Source of the DNA: Somniosus microcephalus
Taxonomy: Eukaryota
Length of the DNA: 64,000 bases
Reading direction: 5' to 3'
NCBI GenBank assembly: GCA_052327205.1
Contig: CM126225.1
Span: forward strand, 11,532,001-11,596,000
Shown here one piece after another: positions 1 through 64,000 of the stretch (positions within the stretch are counted from its first letter, which is position 1; the number at the start of each line of letters is the position of its first letter). The notes below the pieces were generated by a model. The model saw only the letters and a list, made by a program, of their open reading frames with translations. It had not been told where the DNA came from and made no database searches. A program made the translations under genes and the position numbers.

Positions 1-226
1 TTGCGGCTGCCACGGGCGAGGCGGCCGCAACTGAATTTCGGCGCTGGGGCCCGTCGCCATGGCAACCGGGACGCTGCGCACACCGATGACGTCATCGGTG
101 CCGGCGCAGCGCTACCGGTCTAGCGCGGCGGAAGGGCCCCAGGCAATTTCGGCGCCGGCGCCAATTGCAGCGCTAGGCCCTCTAGCGCCGCAAAAGCGGC
201 GCTAAGGCAACTCAATTTCTAGGCCC
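1..226. mobile_element. End of a Harbinger-type non-autonomous element (MITE), cut off by the window start
   Basis: Ends ...ACTCAATTTCTAGGCCC, the reverse complement of the Harbinger TIR at 32328 with one mismatch. GC-rich, with TAGCGCC motifs and TGACGTCA at 87-94. Confidence 0.8.
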
Positions 227-4869: not shown

Positions 4870-6340
4870 TACAGGAGCTGATGCATTTTGGCAGAAGGAA
4901 CAGGGAGAGGCAATATACACTTAATGGCACAGTTTTAAAGAGTGTGCAGGGACAGAGGGACCTGGGAGTTAATGTGTATAGGTCCCTGAAGGTGGCGGGA
5001 CATATTGAGAGAGTGCTTAGCAAAGCATATGGGATCTTGGGCTAAGTAGAGGTATTGAGTACAAAAGTAGAGAAGTTATGCTGAACCTTTATAAAGTGCT
5101 GGTTAGGCCACAACTGGAGTATTGCATCCAGTTCTGGTCACCACACTTTAGGAAGGATGTGAAGGCCCTTGAGAGGGTGCGGAGGAGATTGACCAGAATG
5201 GTTCCGGGGATGGGCAATCTTAGTTACAAGGACAGGTTGGAGAAGCTGGATTTGTTTTCATTAGAGCAAAGGAGGTTGAGGGGTGATTTGATAGAGGTGT
5301 ACAAGATTCTGACAGGTTTGGATAGGCTAGACGGGGAAAGGCTGTTCCCACTAGTTGATGGTACAAGGACTAGGGGTCACAGATTTAGGGGGAAAATTCA
5401 GTATTGCCCCATTTGGGGCGCCATTATCGGCCGTGCGCAAAGTTTAGCGCCTGGCGCTAATTATCGCCTCCGACGGCAAACTTGGCTTTTATCGCCCCTC
5501 GAGGTGATTGGAGCGCTAAATCAGGCGCTTCACACCTGTCTTAAGGCGCAAATGCCGAGGAGCGAGGCGCTACCTCAGAGCGCGGGCGAAGCAAGGAAGA
5601 GCAAATCAAAATGAACCTGCAAAATGTTGCTCAGTACCCAAAACTCATTCACACAGCATTGAATCTCTCCAGAAGTCTCTCTCTCTCTCTCTCTCAGAAT
5701 GCGTGGTGCAAAAATATCACCAACAAAAAAAGGCAGGAAGCGGTCGCCTTTAAATAGTGCTCCCCCAGTCCCTTTCTGACTGCAAAACGCTCCCCTCAAC
5801 CTGTCGTTGCTACCGGCAGGTGGTAAGGCAGGGGGTGCCACTCAATATCCGGTCCGGGGCGCTACTGGGGCGTTGCGCACTCGACTGACGTCACGATCTG
5901 CCGGTGCAGGAGATCGTGGCGGTAGTGTTTAGCGCTGCCGCAAAATGTCTAGTTAATTTCGCGAGCGGCGCAAACATCGCCGCGCCTGGGCGCTAGTTGC
6001 TTTGCGCCCCATTAGCGCCCTCTTAATGCGTTAACGGGCGGCGCAAGCAACTGAATTTTTCCCCCTTAAGGTTTTGGGCAAGAGATACAGGGGGGATGTG
6101 AGGGAAAACCTTTTTACGCAGCGAGTGGTGAGGACCTGGAATTCGCTGCCGACGGAAGTGGTGGAAGCGGAGACACACAATGTTTTCAAGGGGAGACTGG
6201 ATAGGCACTTGAGGGAAATAAACTTGCAGGGCTACGGGGATAGAGCGGGGGAATGGGACTGACTGGATTGCTCTACAGAGAGCTGGCTTGGATTCGATGG
6301 GCCGAATGGCCTCCTTCTATGCCGTATGACTCTATATGAC
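4870..6340 (+). mobile_element. CR1 LINE 3' fragment interrupted by a MITE
   Basis: ...TRGHRF at 5387 resumes as KVLGKRYRGDVRENLFTQRVV after 6068; CR1 tail ends near 6340. Confidence 0.9.
5388..6065. mobile_element. Harbinger-type MITE, 678 bp
   Basis: TIRs GGGGGAAAATTCAGT / ACTGAATTTTTCCCCC; 3-bp TSD TTA (5385-5387 and 6066-6068) inside a CR1. Confidence 0.92.
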
Positions 6341-29150: not shown

Positions 29151-29658
29151 AATTTGTCTTTGCTAAAACAACCTAAAGTCAAATTGGGAAGACAACCATC
29201 CCATGTATTATGTGGTTTGTATTGGCTACAGATAGATTGGTTGCTAGGAGTATTGTCAGAGAATCATAAGCAATGGAGAGGGTGTAACATCTAACCCATT
29301 TCTGCAACCTAAAACGAAGCTCCAGTACATCCTATGACATTGACCATCTTGAGCAAGTGTGGCTGCATCATCTATAACACATTGGGAGGGGTTGTGGCCC
29401 AAGAGCTGGCAAAAAAGAACAAGCAAGGAGGAAGTCTAGAGAAATTGACGAGAGCACTGTAGGATGCAAGAACAACTAGGAAGAGAGAACCTAGGAACAC
29501 ACCACGCCACAGTGTGAAGCTGATCAAGTAGTGTTTACCCTTGCTCCCTAGCACAGGTAGGCTGGTGTCACCTGCACTAAGGATCATGTGTAGGGTTGCT
29601 GTAATGAAATCTGTTTGTCTTGATTCTGTATTCGTTTTGCACTCATGTATATTACCCT

Positions 29659-30059
29659 GTTCCTGGGACTAGGGACAGGGTCATGGGCAAGGCTTGGAAG
29701 CTAAGCAAGAGCCAGGTCTGGTTAGTACCTGGAAGGAGTGACCATTAGAGAAGACCAGGTGCAGAAAGTCACAGAATGGAGCCCTGAGGAGGGGCGGTTG
29801 GTACGGAAGGGGGCGGCTGGTGAGCAGGCCCGGGCGTTGGGCTGAAGATTGTCAGACAGGAGGAATGGTGGAAATGGAATGGCGGCGCGCACAGATGCAG
29901 CGGCTTTTGCTTCTCCCAGGACGGTGCTATTTACGTTTAATGTTAATGTTATTTGTACTGGACTCATGGGAGCTTGCAAGATCACATTTCGTTGTTCATG
30001 TACTTGTGCATTGTACAATGACAATAAAGTTGAATTATATTATTATTATTATATTATAT
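29659..30059 (+). mobile_element. 5S rRNA-derived SINE (SINE3-type) with Rex/Babar-like tail, inserted in the 5' LTR
   Basis: Absent from the 3' LTR; 11-bp TSD TATATTACCCT. 29693-29770 aligns to the 3' part of 5S rRNA (GGAAGCTAAGCA...CTGGTTAGTAC.TGGA...ACC.GGTGC). Ends GTACAATGACAATAAAGTTGAA(TTA)n. Confidence 0.8.
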
Positions 30060-30324
30060 TATATTACCCTCCCCCACGGTGTATAGTTTCACTTCCTCTT
30101 TCCCGACTAACCTGGAAGGTTCCAGGTCTTGGCTCTTGGCTCCGCCCCTGACTTCTCTTACATAAAGATCCCAGGATCTGTATGACTCATTCCTGTGAAC
30201 CAGTCGGCGTGTTGAGATGTTAGCTCTGATCTTAGTGATTAAAAGCCAACTTGTTTAAGTCTATAACTTCTAGTTTTGTGGTTATTGAAGGCCCATCAAT
30301 TTTTAATCACTAAAGAATACTAGG

Positions 30325-30906
30325 ATGGATCGACTCCTAAAACCAGAGCGTCTGGACTTGGATCCACATTCTGCTGAAGCATCAAATCAATTTGGACACT
30401 GGCTCAAATGTTTCGAACTCTTCGCGGGGGCCTCATCCACTAGCGAGGTAGATAAACTGAGTCTACTGACTACTCGCGTAAGTCATCGGATTTATTCGTT
30501 CATCCGGGACGCCACCTCTTACACGGAGGCCATCACTATCCTGAAGGCCCAATACCAGAGGCCGGTAAACGAAGTGTACGCCAGACATCTGCTGGCTACA
30601 CGCAGGCAGCGACCACAGGAATCAATGGACGATTTCTTACAGGGCCTAAAGGACCTGGTCCGGGACTGTAACTGCAAGGCAGTGATGGCCAACGCGTACT
30701 CTGACGAATTGGTCCGCGATTCCTTCATCACGGGCCTCAAATCGAATTATATCCGGCAGAGACTGCTGGAGAAGGAGGTCCTGGATTTAAAAAAGACAGT
30801 GGCCACTGCGCGATCGCTGGACGTGGCCCAGAGAAACTCTGACTCTTATTCTTCCGGCCATGCGGCCCTCACCGTCTCGTGCGCGCCGAGGGGGCCGCCA
30901 TCTTAG
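30325..30906 (+). CDS. Gypsy gag, N-terminal/capsid part (truncated)
   Basis: ATG 25 nt after the LTR; ARHLLATRRQRPQESMDDFLQGLKDLVRDC...VRDSFITGL is the Gypsy gag major-homology-like region. Confidence 0.85.
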   Translation: MDRLLKPERLDLDPHSAEASNQFGHWLKCFELFAGASSTSEVDKLSLLTTRVSHRIYSFIRDATSYTEAITILKAQYQRPVNEVYARHLLATRRQRPQESMDDFLQGLKDLVRDCNCKAVMANAYSDELVRDSFITGLKSNYIRQRLLEKEVLDLKKTVATARSLDVAQRNSDSYSSGHAALTVSCAPRGPPS

Positions 30907-30964
30907 AATCAGCCATCTTCCCCATCCAGGTCTCAGACCAGCTCTACGCCGCCGGAGTCCCCAC

Positions 30965-32047
30965 ACAGAAGTTCACCCAGGGGTCACCCGACTATACCAT
31001 TTTATAAAGTCCCGCAATCTGCCCCACTCCATCGAGGAGGTCAGGGCAATGACCAGAGCCTGCCGCATCTGTGCGGAATGCAAGCCTCGTTTCTACAGGC
31101 CTGACCGTGCACACCTTATCAAAGCCACACGGCCATTCGAGCGCCTAAGTCTGGACTTCAAGGGACCCCTTCCCTCTGCTGACCGTAACGTATACTTCCT
31201 CAATATCATTGATGAATATTCCCGCTTCCCCTTCGCCATTCCCTGCCCAGACATGACCAGTGCCACGGTCATCAAGTGTCTCTGTAATCTATTCTGCATG
31301 TTTGGCATGCCAAACTACATACACAGCGATAGGGGGACGTCATTCATGAGTGACGAGCTGCACCAGTTCTTGCCCTCGAAGGGGATAGCCACTAGCAGAA
31401 CCACTAGCTACAACCCCCGGGGTAATGGGCAAGTGGAAAGGGAGAATGCTACTGTTTGGAAGGCTGTCACGTTAGCCTTAAAGTCAAAAGGCCTTCCGAC
31501 CTCCCACTGGCAGGAAGTCCTCCCAGACGTGCTCCACTCCATAAGGTCTCTGTTATGTACTGCCACTAACGTTACCCCTCACGAAAAGATGTTCGTTTTC
31601 CCCCGGAAATCCACCTCGGGCATATCTCTACCCGCGTGGCTGATGTCTCCGGGGACAGTACTATTGCGGAAGCACGTGAGAGGCCATAAAACGGACCCCC
31701 TTGTGGAAAAGGTACAGCTCCTCCATGCAAACCCTCAGTACGCCTATATCGAATACTCTGACGCGCGAGAGGACACTGTTTCCATAAAAGACCTCGCTCC
31801 CTCGGGGAGCGGAGAGAACGATGGGAGACTACCCGATGAAGACCTACACTACAAAGAGACAGGATTCCCAGAGGTATCAATACCCAACTTTAACCTGGAG
31901 GACACTGCAGATAACCTGGAAGACACTGCGGAGGCCCGGACAGCGGAGGAACCAGAATCCACTCCCCTAGAGGCACCCCAACCGGCTTTGCGCCGATCCC
32001 TGAGAACTGCAAAACCTCCTGACAGACTCACTTATACCAACTTTTAA
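30965..32047 (+). CDS. Gypsy integrase (pol 3' remnant)
   Basis: HPG...CRIC zinc-finger remnant; catalytic LSLDFKGP, IHSDRG and NGQVERENA (DDE); uninterrupted to the stop just before the PPT. Confidence 0.9.
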   Translation, partial: TEVHPGVTRLYHFIKSRNLPHSIEEVRAMTRACRICAECKPRFYRPDRAHLIKATRPFERLSLDFKGPLPSADRNVYFLNIIDEYSRFPFAIPCPDMTSATVIKCLCNLFCMFGMPNYIHSDRGTSFMSDELHQFLPSKGIATSRTTSYNPRGNGQVERENATVWKAVTLALKSKGLPTSHWQEVLPDVLHSIRSLLCTATNVTPHEKMFVFPRKSTSGISLPAWLMSPGTVLLRKHVRGHKTDPLVEKVQLLHANPQYAYIEYSDAREDTVSIKDLAPSGSGENDGRLPDEDLHYKETGFPEVSIPNFNLEDTADNLEDTAEARTAEEPESTPLEAPQPALRRSLRTAKPPDRLTYTNF

Positions 32048-32827
32048 GAAACATCACCCCGATGGACTAAATCTATAGAAGGGGTGAATGTAATGAAATC
32101 TGTTTGTCTTGATTCTGTATTCATATTGCACTCATGTATACTACCCTCCCCCACGGTGTATAGTTTCACTTCCTCTTTCCCGACTAACCTGGAAGGTTCC
32201 AGGTCTTGGCTCTTGGCTCCGCCCCTGACTTCTCTTACATAAGGATCCCAGGATCTGTATGACTCATTCCTGTGAACCAGTCGGCATGTTGAGATGTTAG
32301 CTCTGATCTTAGTGATTAAAAGCCAACGGCCTAGAAATTCAGTTGCGTTCGCCAGCCGTTAGCGCCTTAGGAGGGGTAGATCTCGAGCGCTAGGCACTTA
32401 GCGCCTGGGCGCAGGACGATCTGCGCCTACGCCCAACTTCAGTAGACATTTAGCGCCGGCGCAAAGTGTTTGCGCGCGCTCAGCTGCGCGCGCAACTTAT
32501 GACGTCATTTCGTCGTGCAACGCCCTTTGTGCGCCCCAAACCGGAACTTCAGTCGCGCCCGCCCAATGTGGGCGTGGCGGTGTTAAGAACTGTGAAGTGG
32601 AACGCAGCAGAGGCCCTGCGGGCCTCGGGGAGCGCTAATTAAAGGGCACTTACACTGAACTATAAAGGCCAGCCATTTTGCTGCAATGACTTTTCTGCAA
32701 CGGATTTCTGGACAGAGACCAAGGAAGAGACCTTACTGATTTGGCCCAACATAGGAGAGGTATTTTTGGCTTCTGGCCAGAGCTTGGAAATTTGCCTCAT
32801 TGTGATTTCATTGTTTGCAAGTATATT

Positions 32828-33973
32828 ATGGGGGCTGCATGGGGTTCCAACCCTCAGTTCCAGCATTATGTGCAAAGGGCTCGCAGACGCTGTGTGAGAG
32901 GGGCAGCCATGCCTAGACACAGAGGGGGCATCAGGCATCAGCAACGTAGGCCTTACCCACTCAGGGAATACCGCCAGCAGGTGTCCTATCTCACCATGAC
33001 TGCCGCGCAGTGTGTTAAGAGGCTGCGCTTCAGAAGGGAGGTGGTTGCAGAGATCTGCCAGCTGCTTCACAGAGATCTGCGTCCACAGCTGATGTGCAGG
33101 ACGTCTCTGTCGGTGGAAGTGAAGGTCACGGTGGCTCTGAACTTTTATGCAAGCGGCTCCTTCCAAGCCGCTGCTGGGGACATAGCTAACATCTCCCAGT
33201 TCGCCGTGCATCGCTGCATCCGGCAGGTCACCGATGCCCTTTTCACAAGGAGACACCAATTCATCTCCTTCCCCATGACCCTAGAGAGGCAGGAGCAGCG
33301 TGCAGTCGGATTTGCGAGGGTCGCCGACTTCCCCATGGTGCAGGGCGCCATTGACTGCACGCATGTGGCTTTGCGGGCACCTATCGACAATGCCGAGAAT
33401 TACCGCAACCGGAAGTGCTACCATTCCCTCAATGTACAGCTGGTGTGTGACCACAGGCAGCGCATCCTAGCTGTCAATGCCCGCTTTCCAGGCAGCAGCC
33501 ACGATGCTTTTATCCTGCGCCAGACTACTGTGGCTGACATGTTCCAGGCACAGCCTCCCCCAAGAGGATGGCTTATCGGGGACAAAGGCTATCCTTTGTG
33601 TACATGGCTCATGACCCCGCTCCGCGTGCCCAGGACCCCTGCTGAGGAGGCATACAACGAAAGCCATCAAGCCACAAGGAACATCATAGAGCAAACGATT
33701 GGCGTCCTCAAGCAACGGTTCCGCTGCCTGGATCGCTCCGGCGGATCTCTGCAGTATTCGCCGGATAGAGTCTCCCAGTTCGTCGTCGTTTGCTGCATGC
33801 TGCACAACCTGGCTATCCGCAGGACTCAGGCACTGCCACCTCACGTTGGACCACCACCTCAGGAGGATGAGCAGGAGGACCATGAGGAGGAGGAGGAGGA
33901 GGAGTACCAGCCCAGGAGGGAGCCACAAGGTCCAAGGGCCGTCCGTCGGCGGCTTATTGAACGACACTTCTAG
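32828..33973 (+). CDS. Harbinger DDE transposase (HARBI1-like nuclease family), 381 aa from the first ATG
   Basis: HTH region (VALNFYASGSFQ...ISQFAVHRCIRQV); GAIDCTH, YRNRKCYHSLNVQLVCD, PGSSHDAFIL, GDKGYP and IEQTIGVLKQRFRCL; AATAAA at 34087. Confidence 0.93.
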   Translation: MGAAWGSNPQFQHYVQRARRRCVRGAAMPRHRGGIRHQQRRPYPLREYRQQVSYLTMTAAQCVKRLRFRREVVAEICQLLHRDLRPQLMCRTSLSVEVKVTVALNFYASGSFQAAAGDIANISQFAVHRCIRQVTDALFTRRHQFISFPMTLERQEQRAVGFARVADFPMVQGAIDCTHVALRAPIDNAENYRNRKCYHSLNVQLVCDHRQRILAVNARFPGSSHDAFILRQTTVADMFQAQPPPRGWLIGDKGYPLCTWLMTPLRVPRTPAEEAYNESHQATRNIIEQTIGVLKQRFRCLDRSGGSLQYSPDRVSQFVVVCCMLHNLAIRRTQALPPHVGPPPQEDEQEDHEEEEEEEYQPRREPQGPRAVRRRLIERHF

Positions 33974-34312
33974 GCCCCCTGTCAGGGAATGGCTTGTGGC
34001 AATGAAGGCACATGAATGCAACCGCTCCGCAAGCCCTCAGCCGGTTAACGCAACAACCACTCGAAACATCACACATGGACAAGCTGAATAAAGAAAAAGC
34101 TTTATTGAACAAACTCAGGGCCCTTCCCACATGAAACCCAAAAACAGACAACACCCCCAAAAAACAGTCAAAAACATATCTCACTCCCACAACCTGGGGA
34201 GGAATAACAAAACTTATCTATCCAAATGGCCTTCATCCTCGGCCTTACCAAAAGAACCCCCCCCATAGACAACACAACCACCCCCATATAAAAAAACATT
34301 TGCCAACACACT

Positions 34313-35649
34313 CTACTTTGTGTGCCGAGAGGGCGAGTCCTTGTCCAGGCTTTTCCGGCCCCTGGCCAACCTGCTGCTCCGCCTCAACCTGGGCCCTGTG
34401 GGTGCTGCAAGGCTGGGGGAAGGCTCCTGAGGGGCACATTGCGTGACGGCAGATGCCCTTGGGGGTCGGCCTAGACGAGCTCTGGCCCTCGAGGGGCCGG
34501 CTGCCGACTGCTGCAGCTGTGGCTGGGCAGCATCAGTCCCTCCAGCAGCTCGTCGCAGCTTCGCTGGGGGAGTGGCAGTGGCGGCTGCAGCAATGGGGGC
34601 AAGCTGGCTGATGCCAGGCGCTCGCTGCTCGCCTGAGACACTGGCACTCGGCCGGGCTGGCACTGCAGCAAGCGCAGCAATCTGGTGAAGGCCAGACCGC
34701 TGTGCTGCTGCAGCGCGGCGGGTGCCCTGGCGATGCCTGCCTGACACAGCGAGTGTGGCAGCAGTGAGTGCCCGTACTGCCCTGGTCTGTGCCCGCATCA
34801 GACCAGCCAGTGACTGCACGGCACCACTGATCAACTGTCCACTCGCTGCCTGTGCTGCCCTGAATTCGTCCCGACTCGCGTCCTGTGCTGCCCTGAATTC
34901 GGCCCGACTCGCGTCCTGTGCTGCCCTCAATTCGGCCCGACTCGCGTCCTGTGATGCCCCGAATTCGGCCCGACTCGCGTCCTGTGATGCCCCGAATTGT
35001 TCGAGACCCCTGGCCTGTGCTGCCGCGAGTTGTTCGAAACCCCTGGCCTGTGAGGCCCCGAAATCGGACACACTATGAGCCAGGGACTCAATGGCCTCAG
35101 GCAACTGTGCCACAACCCCCATGAACTCGGTGTGCCGACGATCCGAGTCCGCGGACATTTGATCAAGGAGGCGCACCTCCTGGGCGAGGACCGTCTCCGG
35201 ACTGGAGGCCGGACTCTCCCTCTGGGGAGAAGGCCGCCGAGCTGCCCGACCCTTCCCGCGTGGCTGCACGCCACTGGGCCCAGCAACTACACTCCCCTGC
35301 AACACTTCCCCCCTCTGGGGAGAAGGCAGCCGAGCTGCCCGACCCTTCCCGTGTGGCTGGACGCCACTGGGCACAGGAGCTACACTCCCCTGCAACACTT
35401 CCCCCCTCTGGGGAGAAGGCAGCCGTGCTGCCCGACCCTTCCCGCGTGGCTGGACGCCACTGGGCACAGGAGCTACACCCCCCTGCAACACTTCCCCCTG
35501 GCTCTCCTCCAGGGAAGACGTGTCCCCTCCATTGCCATCCCCTGGCGCGGATGAGGGTTCCCCCGATGGGCCGCCTTCCTCTTCCTCCTCCTCGTCCTCC
35601 TCTTCCGAGGGATTGACACTCACAGCTTCAGGGACCTCCTCCTCACCAG
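34313..35649 (-). CDS. Harbinger Myb/SANT partner protein, exon 3 (acidic, repeat-rich, basic tail)
   Basis: Acceptor CCTTCCTGCTTTCAG; a phase-1 join to exon 2 is in frame with the 436-aa ORF; minus-strand AATAAA at 34101-34106. Confidence 0.8.
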
Positions 35650-35808
35650 CTGAAAGCAGGAAGGCACAAGAGTAGCTTTAGAGTGAGGACAGGGCATCAG
35701 CGAGGGAGGCATGAGTGGTGGCATTCTGCGCATTGGTCGGACAGTGGCAAAGGATGTAGATCTGAAGCGCAAGGGGAACGAGAGAGGTCCAAAAGGTCAT
35801 GTCCTTAC

Positions 35809-35971
35809 CATTGGGGCCCAGCACAGGGTCGGCATCTCCAATTGCAACGGGGCCAATCACCCGGGCACCCATGAGTCGACCCACGCGCTCCTCCAGGTCA
35901 CTGAGCTGCTGGAACTGGGGACGGCCTCCCCCGGTGACAGTCCGGCTCTTCAGATTCTGGGCCAGCTTGGC
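35809..35971 (-). CDS. Harbinger Myb/SANT partner protein, exon 2
   Basis: CCTTTCTCTTGCAG|AKLAQNLKSRTVTGGG...LSDLEERV...|GTAAG; 163 nt. The TGGG motif is typical downstream of Myb/SANT-like domains. Confidence 0.85.
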
Positions 35972-36256
35972 CTGCAAGAGAAAGGACGGCCTCTAAGTAC
36001 AGTGTGGTGCCCTGTTGTTGTGTGCACTGCCTCCCATGGTCGAATAGCTTGGCCAGTGTGGTGCCCTGTTGTTGTGTGCACTGCCTCCCATGGTCGAATA
36101 GCTTGGCCACTGTGTAAAGTGCAGAAAGTGCAATTGATGTTCATGCCAGTGCCATAGCTGCTGGATGAGGGCTGGCCATTAGGCCTTTGAGGTCCCTTTG
36201 CCCATAATGTGAGGTGCACATGCAAGGATGAGGAGGACACTGGAAAGGGTACTCAC

Positions 36257-36493
36257 CCTGACAATCCGAGTGAGGTCGTTAAACTTTTTCCGGCATTGGA
36301 CAACAGTCCGGGGGACATCGCAGGTGGCTGTGACCCTCTGGGCGATATCCCTCCAGGCTCTCCTGTACACCCTGTTGGGAGGCTTCTTGCCACTGTCCGG
36401 GAACAAGATATGGCTTCTCTTCTCCAAAGCCCTAACCAGCACCTTTAAATCATGGCCAGAGAAGCGCTGCGCTCGCTCACGGGCCCTCTGCAT
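36257..36493 (-). CDS. Harbinger Myb/SANT partner protein, exon 1 (DNA-binding domain)
   Basis: RFSGHDLKVLV...AWRDIAQRV...RTVVQCRKKFNDL is a Myb/SANT-like trihelix; 79 codons then a GTGAGT donor. Confidence 0.9.
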
Positions 36494-38612
36494 CCTTCCT
36501 GGCGCTATTTCTCTCCAGCAGCAGTGTTTAGGCCTAGCTGGAGGGCTGCAGTATCCAGGGCGTGGCAGCAGACCAAGTCGACCCTTCCCCCTTTAAGAGC
36601 TGGCCGGCGCCAGGGTGTCTGCTGTCAATCAAAACATGACCGCACCTGCGCTGCGCCCGGCCTCGGCGGTATCAGTCTGCACCGCCGGCTTAGCGCCTAA
36701 GGATAGCCGTGCATCGCCAGTTTTAGCGCTCGAGCAAACTCCTTGGCCAAAGCTACTGAATTTCGGCGAACTGCCCTCCACTTTCCGGCGGGCGCAAACT
36801 TTAGCGGCCGCCCGACTTTACCGCCCCAAAAGTGGCTATACTGAATTTCTAGGCCAACTTGTTTAAGTCTATAACTTCTAGTTTTGTGGTTATTGAAGGC
36901 CCATCAATTGCCAAGTGCCCAACCCTGTCCAGGATTGCCCTGGGGTCTCCAGGAATTAAAAACTAATCTCCAGGACCCTGCTGCCAGCAAAACCCAGGAG
37001 AGAAAACATTGGGACGTTAAAAAAAATTGTGTTTATAAAAAAAATTAATTACTCGAACACTTTTGTTTACAAGTCATAAAAATACTGGACGTGGGAAACA
37101 ATGCTGGTTGGCTGACAGTCAAGAATCATCCAATCGCGTAATGATGAGTCTGCTTGCTTTCCGATTGGCTGTGGGAAGGCAGGGCACCATGAGAATGGAC
37201 ATGTTGGGCGACCAATGGCAGGAGTGTAAGGGGGGGCGGGGCAGTTGGAGATCATGTGATGAAACCTCCAAGAATATGTCCAACCATAGTTGCCGACCAT
37301 AATCACGTGTACTCACGGCTACCATTTTGAATGGCGTACCACTTCGGGACTGAAATCAGCAAAACTGATTTCCGCTGTTCGTGTTGAAGGTACTGTTTGC
37401 ATGAAGCTGGGAAAACATTTGAGGAGAAATCATCTCTGCACAAAGACGATTTGCATGAATCGGATAGTAAGTTTGAGATTGAGGGAAGCTAACTGGGGCG
37501 TAGGAAAAGCCGACATAAAACTTACCAGCAAGGTAGCTTGGCGAGGGGCAGATAGATGAATGGATAAACTGGTGGATATATAGATTGATTGGTAGAAAGC
37601 AATGTGCAGTCAGTATCGTTAATGTGGCTTTGATTTAAGAAGTGAGAAAGATGATATAATGCCCAAGGTAGGACTTCTTCTGTCAGTATTAGTAACAAAT
37701 GGAAAAGGCTGAATTTAAAAAAATCTTCAATCTATCGGCAATTTCCCCTTCATGCATAAAACAGTGTAACCCTCCTGCTCTGACAGAGTTTCAACAGCAG
37801 GCTGATTGAGCATTACTGGTTGACAGTTTGATAAAAGAGATAAAGCTGCAATTGGCAGCTCGCTTCCAGTAAGCAGGCAATTGAGTTTGAAAAGGATGGA
37901 TTCTCAACATTTACTCAGAAAATCTCACAGATCTAAAGGCAGTTAGAACATAAGAACATAAGAAATAGGAGCAGGAATGGGCCACTTGGCCCCTCGAGCC
38001 TGCTCCGCCAGTCAATAAGATCATGGCTGATCTTGGGCTCAAAGCCACTTCCCCGCCCGCTCCCCATAACCCTTCACTCCCTCATCTTGCAAAAATCTGT
38101 CTCTCTCCACCTTAAATGTATTTAATGACCCAGCCTCCACGGCTCTCTGGGGCAGAGAATTCCACAGATTTATGACCCTCTGAGAGAAGAAATTCCTCCT
38201 CATCTCAGTTCTAAACGGGCGACCCTTTATTCTGAAACTGTGCCCCCGAGTTCTAGATTTCCCCACGAGGGGAAACATCCTCTCTGCATCTACCTTGTCG
38301 AGCCCCCTCAGGATCTTATATGTTTCAATAAGATCACCTCTCATTCTTCTAAATTCCAATGAGTATTGGCCCAACCTGCTCAACCTTTCTTCATAAGTCA
38401 ACCCCCTCATCTCAGGAATCAACCAAGTGAATCGTCTCTGAACTGCCTCCAATGCAAGTATACCCTTCCTTAAATAAGGAGACCAAAACTGTACGCAGTA
38501 CTCAAGGTGTGGTCTCACCAATACCCTGTACAGTTGTAGCAAGTCTTCCCTGCTTTTATACGCCAACCCCCTTGCAATAAAGGCCAACATTCCATTTGCC
38601 TTTTTGATTACT

Positions 38613-40416: not shown

Positions 40417-41162
40417 GGGGGAGAAATTCAGTTGGTTGCGCCACCCGTTAGCGCCTTAAGAGGGCGCTAAGTGGGTCGCAAGCCAACTCGCGCCCGGGTG
40501 CGGCACTGCCCACGCCTCCTGCTAAATTCCGCGGGACGTTAGTGGTGGCACTAACCGTTAGCGCTGCGTCGCTGCCGATGACGTCATCGGTGTGCGGAGC
40601 GCCCCGCTGATATCCCGGCCGCGATATTCGGGAGCGCCCCCCGATTTACCGCCGGACGCTATGTCCGACAGGGTCAGGGTGGTGTACCTGCGGCCGGGGA
40701 GGCGCAAATTAAAGGCGAGGTGCGGAGTGGCCATTTTTGTTGTTGGCCGCCTGCCAGCACCTGCCTGCGCTCCCGTCCCCGGCCTCCTGAACGCCCCCCC
40801 CCCGTGGAGTGCTGGCTGCGCTCTGCACTCCAAGAGCCCAGCACGAATTCTCCTCGGTGCTGGGCTCTTTTGCCTGCACTCCCGATCGCGCTGCATAAGG
40901 CCCCTCCCCTTTAAGGAGGGGAGGAAGGCCAGCAATACCGCAGCGCGACGTGCCGCGGCGTGTGGCGCTGCGGCACGTTGCGCCACGATATTCACTCGCA
41001 GCGCCCCAAGAGGGATGCGGGGCGCCTCCAGTAGTGCCCCGCTTCCCTTTGGGGCGCAACCGCTCAATTTCCGGTGCGGGGGCGCAAATGTTTCCGGGGC
41101 GCTACTTTTAGCGCCCTGGCGAGGCTGGCGCCCCAAACGGGGCTATACTCAATTTCCCCCCC
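40417..41162. mobile_element. Harbinger-type MITE, 746 bp
   Basis: TIRs GGGGGAGAAATTCAGT / ACTCAATTTCCCCCCC; TTT on both sides; right end GGCTATACT.AATTTC is shared with the autonomous element. Confidence 0.88.
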
Positions 41163-63636: not shown

Positions 63637-64000
63637 GGGGGAAAAATTCAGTCGGTTTACGCCTTCTGTTAGCGCCTTAAGAGGGCGCTAATGGGGCGCA
63701 AAGCAACTAGTGCCCGGGCGCGGCGATGTTTGCGCTGCTCGTGAAATTGACCAGACATTTTGCGGCAGCGCTGAACACTACCGCCACGATCTCCTGCACC
63801 CGCAGATCGTGACGTCAGTCGAGCGTGCAACGCCCCGGTAGCACCCTGGACCGGATATTGAGTGGCGCCCCCTGCCTTACTGCCTGCCGCTATCAACGAC
63901 AGGTTGAGGGGAGCGTTTTGCAGTCGGGAAGGGACTGGGGGAGCGCTATTTAAAGGTGACCGCTTCCTGCCTTTTTTTGTTGGCGACATTGTTGCACCAC
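63637..64000. mobile_element. Harbinger-type MITE (runs off the window)
   Basis: TAA then TIR GGGGGAAAAATTCAGT; close reverse complement of 5705-6065. Confidence 0.9.

Follow-up and report, generated by a model that had tools for sequence, protein, structure and literature searches.

Introduction

Harbinger transposons are described as two-component systems in which a Myb-like protein binds the N-terminus of the transposase, mediates its nuclear import and directs it to the element ends, both proteins being required (PMC9179366, PMC9392472). In the available text of the reviews on the subject, only the reconstructed zebrafish element Harbinger3_DR is named as a Harbinger shown moving in vertebrate cells; our account of its features follows the reviews PMC3016246, PMC8151067, PMC9179366 and PMC9392472. 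Natural Spy transposases, which belong to the same wider superfamily, have been reported to be active (PMC11304231). Here we analyse a 64,000-nucleotide stretch of DNA from Somniosus microcephalus, referred to throughout as the window (NCBI GenBank assembly GCA_052327205.1, contig CM126225.1, positions 11,532,001 to 11,596,000 of the forward strand). It contains a complete Harbinger element of 4,528 bp at 32328-36855 (window coordinates, as are all positions below), which is probably a full-length copy of a large elasmobranch family, ageing neutrally and with no reading frame lost yet.

High-copy Harbingers are known from other vertebrates. In sea kraits, Harbinger-Snek is reported as 269 intact copies with two open reading frames (ORFs) in one species and 1 in another (PMC8437027). 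The available text of PMC4482050 puts the number of potentially active PIF/Harbinger families at 88, judged solely by intact ORFs, and distinguishes PHIS groups by the motif of the target-site duplication (TSD): CWG for NuwaI, TWA for the narrow PIF/Harbinger group, ANT for Pangu and C|TNA|G for NuwaII. As for cartilaginous fishes, a 2022 survey, in its accessible part, reported no Harbingers in the elephant shark and suggested other cartilaginous fishes for checking (PMC9179366). The presence of Harbingers in sharks is not new, because genome papers of the whale shark (PMC8455134) and the grey reef shark (PMC12498223) list the superfamily. A description of a shark Harbinger family was not found in the literature searched, which left Repbase, Dfam and most subscription papers outside; the supplements of PMC12498223 and PMC8455134 may list such families.

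Results

A complete two-component Harbinger transposon

The window element has the four testable features of the broad PIF/Harbinger superfamily, namely a DDE transposase, a Myb/SANT ORF, terminal inverted repeats (TIRs) and a 3-bp TSD. It is a real, complete two-component transposon, as the first-pass annotation of this DNA had proposed (Table 1). The TIR, GGCCTAGAAATTCAGT, is identical in 16 of 16 letters at the two ends and is shorter than the 25-50 bp given as usual in PMC9179366. Both flanks carry the triplet AAC. The sister long terminal repeat (LTR) of the host retroelement lies about 2 kb upstream. It carries AAC once at the equivalent position and represents an empty paralogous site, against which the perfect TIRs and the AAC duplication claimed earlier could be verified.

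The reads compared were DNA runs of two related organisms, A and B, together with two RNA runs of organism B. Loose read ends mark the left terminus at 32328 (117 and 265 reads in the two RNA runs) and the right terminus at 36855 (178 reads in one RNA run). A joint that skips 4531 bases, equal to the element (4528) and one TSD copy (3), is present in all four runs; these empty-site joints could reflect a polymorphic insertion but may equally stem from other copies of the LTR. In contigs of one run, a right end is joined to a left end across 24-27 unrelated letters, which could reflect either closely spaced tandem copies or circles. One such contig shows a further AAC junction, with AAACAC ahead of the AAC.

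The two subterminal regions together contain 6 copies of the heptamer GCGCTAA, and the 3.9-kb interior contains none; this heptamer may be the binding site of the Myb-like protein. Four related Harbinger-type ends or short non-coding elements lie elsewhere in the window (1-225, 5388-6065, 40417-41162 and 63637-64000). They have the TIR core and the GCGCTA motif in common, and the one at 1-225 has 15 of the 16 TIR letters of the main element. Of 39 GCGCTA hexamers in the window, 29 fall in the Harbinger element or in these four related ends. The opposed polyadenylation signals noted in the first-pass annotation are present, and they are the sole AATAAA and TTTATT hexamers between the transposase and the Myb-like gene.

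Table 1. Features of the Harbinger element and its LTR host, in window coordinates.
Feature	Position	Strand	Basis
Left TSD copy, AAC	32325-32327	.	Flank comparison; empty-site joint skip of 4528+3
Left 16-bp TIR	32328-32343	+	16/16 against right TIR; read loose ends
Left subterminal region, repeated GCGCTAA/TTAGCGC	32344-32660	+	Candidate Myb-like binding sites
TATA-like box (candidate), upstream of transposase	32661-32666	+	Sequence
DDE transposase ORF, 381 aa	32828-33973	+	Open frame; profile match; catalytic residues aligned
Opposed poly(A) hexamers	34087-34106	.	AATAAA at 34087 (+); TTTATT at 34101, i.e. AATAAA on -
Myb-like gene exon 3 (predicted)	34313-35649	-	Open frame; internal repeats
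Myb-like gene exon 2 (predicted)	35809-35971	-	GT-AG ends; homology over junction 1
Myb-like gene exon 1, Myb/SANT domain	36257-36493	-	PF13873 match; homologues
Right subterminal region, GCGCTAA motif and internal partial TIR copy at ~36755	36560-36839	-	Sequence
Right 16-bp TIR	36840-36855	-	16/16 against left TIR; read loose ends
Right TSD copy, AAC	36856-36858	.	Flank comparison
Host 3' LTR	32089-32327 and 36859-36906 (span 32089-36906)	+	Split by Harbinger; start given by loose ends at 32089
Sister 5' LTR	29600-30298	+	Empty at Harbinger site; itself split by ~390 bp

The transposase and its relatives

The transposase ORF of 381 amino acids runs without interruption and contains the DDE motifs, in agreement with the earlier description. 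It matches the DDE_Tnp_4 profile PF13359 (E 6e-38, 130 bits against a cut-off of 24.8), D176, D252 and E288 fall in conserved alignment columns, and the Met-Gly start recurs in all 9 homologues inspected. Three of 90 columns conserved in close homologues differ in this copy, which is tied for the 7th fewest among the 83 sequences covering those columns. An AlphaFold2 model had a mean predicted local distance difference test score (pLDDT) of 85.8. The comparison with solved structures gave no match by sequence and none by fold at E <=0.001; the best fold-search rows, weaker than this threshold, were mariner, TnsB and ISCth4 transposases and integrases. Ahead of the gene, reading by eye revealed a short ORF following the TATA-like box (32686-32739) and what may be a GT-AG intron of 62 nt (32760-32821) directly before the transposase ATG.

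The closest proteins are shark and ray annotations named 'putative nuclease HARBI1', with up to 66% identity, from Pristiophorus, Heptranchias, Mobula, Narcine, Carcharodon and others. In a quick tree of 50 proteins, the query was placed inside a branch containing all 24 named shark and ray rows (SH-aLRT, the Shimodaira-Hasegawa-like approximate likelihood ratio test, 99), and the three named bony-vertebrate rows fell outside it. Judged from these protein sequences, the transposase lineage looks long resident in elasmobranchs. Short-branched clusters of Harbinger transposases (6, 2, 2, 2 and 2 proteins) span shark and ray genera; they look like single-copy domesticated genes derived from this lineage.

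The Myb-like partner gene

On the minus strand, three exons with GT-AG ends join to encode 578 amino acids without a stop, with an N-terminal Myb/SANT domain; the convergent gene predicted in the first-pass annotation is thereby recovered. Exon 1 matches PF13873 (E 5.8e-14, 52 bits against a cut-off of 21.7) and is 49-51% identical to shark and ray Myb-like proteins. Homology supports the first splice junction: of 9 protein matches, 8 continue from the Myb domain across it as far as residue 95-109 of the predicted protein and one breaks off within the alignment, whereas read-through of the intron stops after 26 codons. The second junction is predicted from good splice signals alone. Exon 3 encodes an acidic stretch and a basic C-terminus, and is lengthened by in-frame tandem repeats of 93 bp (3 copies) and 33 bp (about 5 copies) at 34841-35067 and 35218-35498. 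No homologue of this exon was present among the 8,000 candidates scored. A 54-bp duplication lies in intron 1 (36000-36114). A Myb-like protein of about 410 amino acids, highly conserved in seven shark and ray genera and 49-51% identical to exon 1, is possibly the product of a domesticated partner gene.

A large family of mostly full-length copies

DNA near-identical to the element was found in runs of three related organisms, with word shares of 0.81, 0.80 and 0.63. Summed contig depth over the element was 0.3-2.8 million, against 15.6 and 23 in the single-copy flank. The median depth ratio of about 23,000 (23,184 and 23,088 in organisms A and B), or about 750 if overlapping contigs count each position 31 times, is a rough bound at >=90% identity and not a copy number. 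Taken as such a bound, it indicates a family of ~750-23,000 copies, a thousand or so and possibly more. The copies are mostly full-length, since the end bins have only 1.2-1.3 times the interior depth, and the depth profiles of organisms A and B agree closely (Spearman 0.94). In the 5.7 kb examined, a second letter accounts for 5% or more of the DNA depth at about 740-770 places, C/G swaps being the commonest; these sites suggest several subfamilies. A search of metagenome contigs for the TIR pattern returned 17 loci, of which 4 had 22-bp blastn matches and none a tblastn match, and these loci were discarded as chance.

Probable neutral ageing of the window copy

Among the variant sites listed (40 of 1,365), 24 are inside the element. 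At 17 of these 24, at least 95% of the depth in both DNA runs carries a letter other than that of the window; the remaining 7 were under the 95% cut and left uncounted. The private letters of the window are missing from some contig rows, but because rare variants drop out of such contigs, this was not counted as a sign of polymorphism. The 17 copy-specific differences comprise 8 in the transposase ORF, 4 in the Myb exons (2 of them silent) and 5 in non-coding DNA, and 7 of the 17 are CpG-to-TpG/CpA decay. Each of the 8 differences in the transposase alters an amino acid, an outcome with P = 0.07 under neutrality and 1.6e-4 at a nonsynonymous-to-synonymous rate ratio, dN/dS, of 0.2. Five of them are CpG decay, and 4 change arginine to glutamine or histidine in the N-terminal tail. 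The uniformly nonsynonymous changes in the transposase and the CpG decay at 7 of 17 sites fit neutral ageing. The divergence of this copy from the family is at least 0.38% overall and at least 0.7% in the transposase ORF.

At a divergence of 0.4%, both ORFs would be open by chance with P = 0.32, and at 0.7% with P = 0.14. Because 14-32% of such copies keep both ORFs open, intactness says little in so large a family. Applied to the divergences of this copy and of its host LTRs (below), the mutation rate reported for the epaulette shark, 7e-10 per base per generation (95% interval 1.4-14.1e-10; PMC10587355), gives 3-12 million generations, and an assumed rate of 1e-8 gives 0.2-0.9 million; CpG sites mutate faster, so the lower end of the range is safer. 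With a nucleotide diversity of 0.002, as reported for one shark, an insertion of 0.2-0.4% divergence could still be segregating.

These data bear on two earlier statements about the copy. That it keeps its CpGs holds in part: the observed/expected ratio is 0.62 for the element, compared with 0.67 for the LTR element that hosts it and 0.51 for the window overall, and 7 of the 17 copy-specific differences are CpG decay. A natively active element would be expected to have near-identical copies and no copy-specific decay; at 17 of the 24 listed sites the window departs from the family of organisms A and B. The proposal of a young, natively mobile copy is unsupported, given those sites, the neutral-looking decay and the CpG loss.

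The host LTR element supplies a further time point. Its two LTRs, with the insertions in each set aside, differ at 5 of about 287 sites, which confirms the earlier count of about 5 in 288; at 4 of the 5 mismatches, judged by eye, the unusual letter is in the Harbinger-bearing LTR. The per-LTR divergence is 0.87%. The Harbinger must have inserted after the LTR element did, and to this extent the claim that it is younger than the LTR pair stands; it is not thereby recent, its own divergence being similar to the per-LTR value. The host element itself (29600-36906) is multi-copy and contains a gag-like ORF (30307-30906) and an integrase ORF (30791-32047, PF00665), with no room for reverse transcriptase. 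An insertion of ~390 bp in its 5' LTR (~29659-30050) has AATAAA and a TA/TTA-rich tail at its end and a border repeat of ~11 bp, suggesting the 3' terminus of a non-LTR retroelement.

RNA over the family

In the two RNA runs, 24% and 31% of the reads were covered. Reads at least 99% alike to this copy numbered 916 of 12,820 (7%) and 1,530 of 18,208 (8%), while 55% of the RNA reads were 90-95% alike to it. RNA depth tracks DNA depth over 24 bins (Spearman 0.49 and 0.73), both strands are represented, and introns are covered about as well as exons after correction for DNA depth. The RNA also crosses both termini into mixed flanks (agreement ~0.4). Read-through of many copies by host transcripts gives this pattern. 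Joints were required to have a 5% share, and neither predicted splice junction of the Myb-like gene was among the 15 of 111 joints listed for the two runs at this threshold. Exon 3 of that gene has no sense bias, and 35138-35519 is biased the opposite way.

Alternative readings of the locus

Several observations weigh against neutral ageing of this copy. Its transposase retains 45 of 47 positions conserved at >=80% in distant homologues, and both differences are conservative. The predicted fold of the protein is also confident. C197, which replaces a glycine present in 97 of 112 close homologues, was considered as probably inactivating, a view weakened by the variation of this glycine in distant relatives (67 of 124); C197 is weak evidence of damage. 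The transposase of this copy may, from its sequence, still work, and because the catalytic core is conserved the copy could still be mobile. The 3' half of the transposase gene shows a 2.8- to 7.4-fold strand bias in both RNA runs: first mates over 33419-33991 are minus:plus 594:81, 364:72 and 314:112 in one run and 591:98, 335:60 and 300:83 in the other, which would fit sense transcription of the transposase gene in some copies, provided that the libraries follow the usual strand convention. The 17-letter comparison was made to organisms A and B, whose DNA runs both have another letter than the window at position 37051 of the single-copy flank. The variants listed are 40 of the 1,365, and a subfamily private to Somniosus microcephalus could share the same 17 letters.

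Such a subfamily might be active and autonomous, in which case the 17 letters would be its markers and both proteins would still mobilise this copy. The perfect TIRs and TSD, the two open ORFs and intact DDE residues, the low number of altered conserved columns (3 of 90), the strand-biased RNA and the origin of the comparison reads in organisms A and B all agree with this. We nevertheless regard it as unlikely, given that 8 of 8 transposase differences are nonsynonymous and 5 are CpG decay, that four arginines are lost from the N-terminal tail, where the Myb-like partner reportedly binds (PMC9392472), and that the RNA provides neither a listed predicted junction nor a sense bias over Myb exon 3. 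At the other extreme, the whole family would be extinct, having been amplified before organisms A and B split, and all copies would be passive and read through by host transcripts. We consider this quite unlikely: the copies are mostly full-length and many should keep open frames, the RNA over the transposase 3' half is strand-biased, and short contigs are unable to reveal a small young subfamily. It would nonetheless explain the nearly equal depth ratios and matching profiles of organisms A and B, the RNA that follows DNA depth and lies for the most part at 90-95% likeness to this copy, and, through low shark mutation rates, small divergences that are old. A domesticated host gene pair of the HARBI1/NAIF1 type, or an assembly chimera, is very improbable in view of the TIRs, the TSD, the empty sister site, the very high copy number and the sharp read-defined termini. 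The substitutions also look neutral, and the query has a terminal branch of 0.39, outside the short-branched clusters; domestication is suggested by the HARBI1 label of the homologues and by the domesticated look of some short-branched shark-plus-ray clusters.

A lead on target-site preference

The published target of Harbinger3_DR is AAACACCWGGTCTTT (PMC3016246). The arms of this target were compared with eight flanks in the window, from this element and the four related elements or ends, a small sample that mixes related families. The arms match 34 of 48 flank positions (random mean 14.05, with 0 of 200,000 draws as high). The true arm order gives the top score of its 30 permutations, and a single flank among the eight matches at 0 of 6 positions. 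The central triplets are AAC for this copy and TTA, TTT, CTT and TAA for the four relatives, all with A or T in the middle; none of the five is CWG and two are TWA, and two triplets are known from one end only. The loose ends of the family reads give a consensus of low agreement: on the left it is ...AAAACAT-ATA in one run and ...AAAAGAT-ATA in the other, and on the right TAT-GTGTTTT. We treat the arm preference as a lead. With AAC, this copy has neither the TWA of the narrow PIF/Harbinger group nor the CWG of NuwaI, and the element fits none of the four TSD-defined PHIS groups.

Discussion

The events at this locus can be pictured by analogy with the described systems. A family member would have jumped into the 3' LTR of the LTR retroelement and has since been ageing neutrally, as we think probable. 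In the jump, the Myb-like protein would bind the element ends, probably at the GCGCTAA repeats, carry the transposase into the nucleus and recruit it to the ends, and the DDE transposase would cut at the 16-bp TIRs. It would insert the element, with a stagger of 3 bases, in the middle of an approximately palindromic 15-bp target that has outer arms resembling AAASAC. In this scheme the sites bound by the Myb-like protein and the interaction of the two proteins are putative, modelled on the known systems, and the second splice junction of the partner gene is predicted.

We see a small chance that a functional transposase/Myb pair is still encoded by some of the natural copies, this one perhaps among them, and that it uses 15-bp target arms like those of Harbinger3_DR around a relaxed, A/T-centred triplet. 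If true, this would be a vertebrate Harbinger moving without reconstruction, and would offer an enzyme pair for asking what reads the arms as against the centre. A natively working Harbinger, if found, would make a useful tool, and one with a long target preference. The copy in the window is a weak candidate for activity, and its family is a reasonable place to seek better ones. The window adds a full-length shark element for which the ends, the partner gene and the target arms are defined.

Among known sequences, the HARBI1 annotations are the nearest, being the closest proteins to the transposase and forming one clade with it. They differ in being gene-model labels without described ends, target site or partner gene, and many are truncated or have more changes at conserved columns than this copy. 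Harbinger-Snek is likewise a high-copy vertebrate Harbinger with natural intact copies, RNA over both ORFs and suspected activity, according to the available text of PMC8437027, but it is described as having arrived by horizontal transfer, whereas the shark transposase nests among shark and ray sequences. With the NuwaI and PIF/Harbinger groups of PMC4482050 the element has in common two ORFs (DDE and Myb/SANT) and a 3-bp TSD; in contrast, AAC lies outside all four PHIS motifs, 2 of the 5 window triplets being TWA. Harbinger3_DR, as reviewed, also combines a DDE transposase and a Myb-like partner with TIRs and a 3-bp TSD, and its outer target arms match the insertion sites of the shark element and its relatives and resemble the loose-end consensus. 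Its centre is CWG, whereas A/T-rich triplets occupy this position here. Compared by features and not by sequence identity, the zebrafish element is a reconstruction and the shark element a natural genomic copy.

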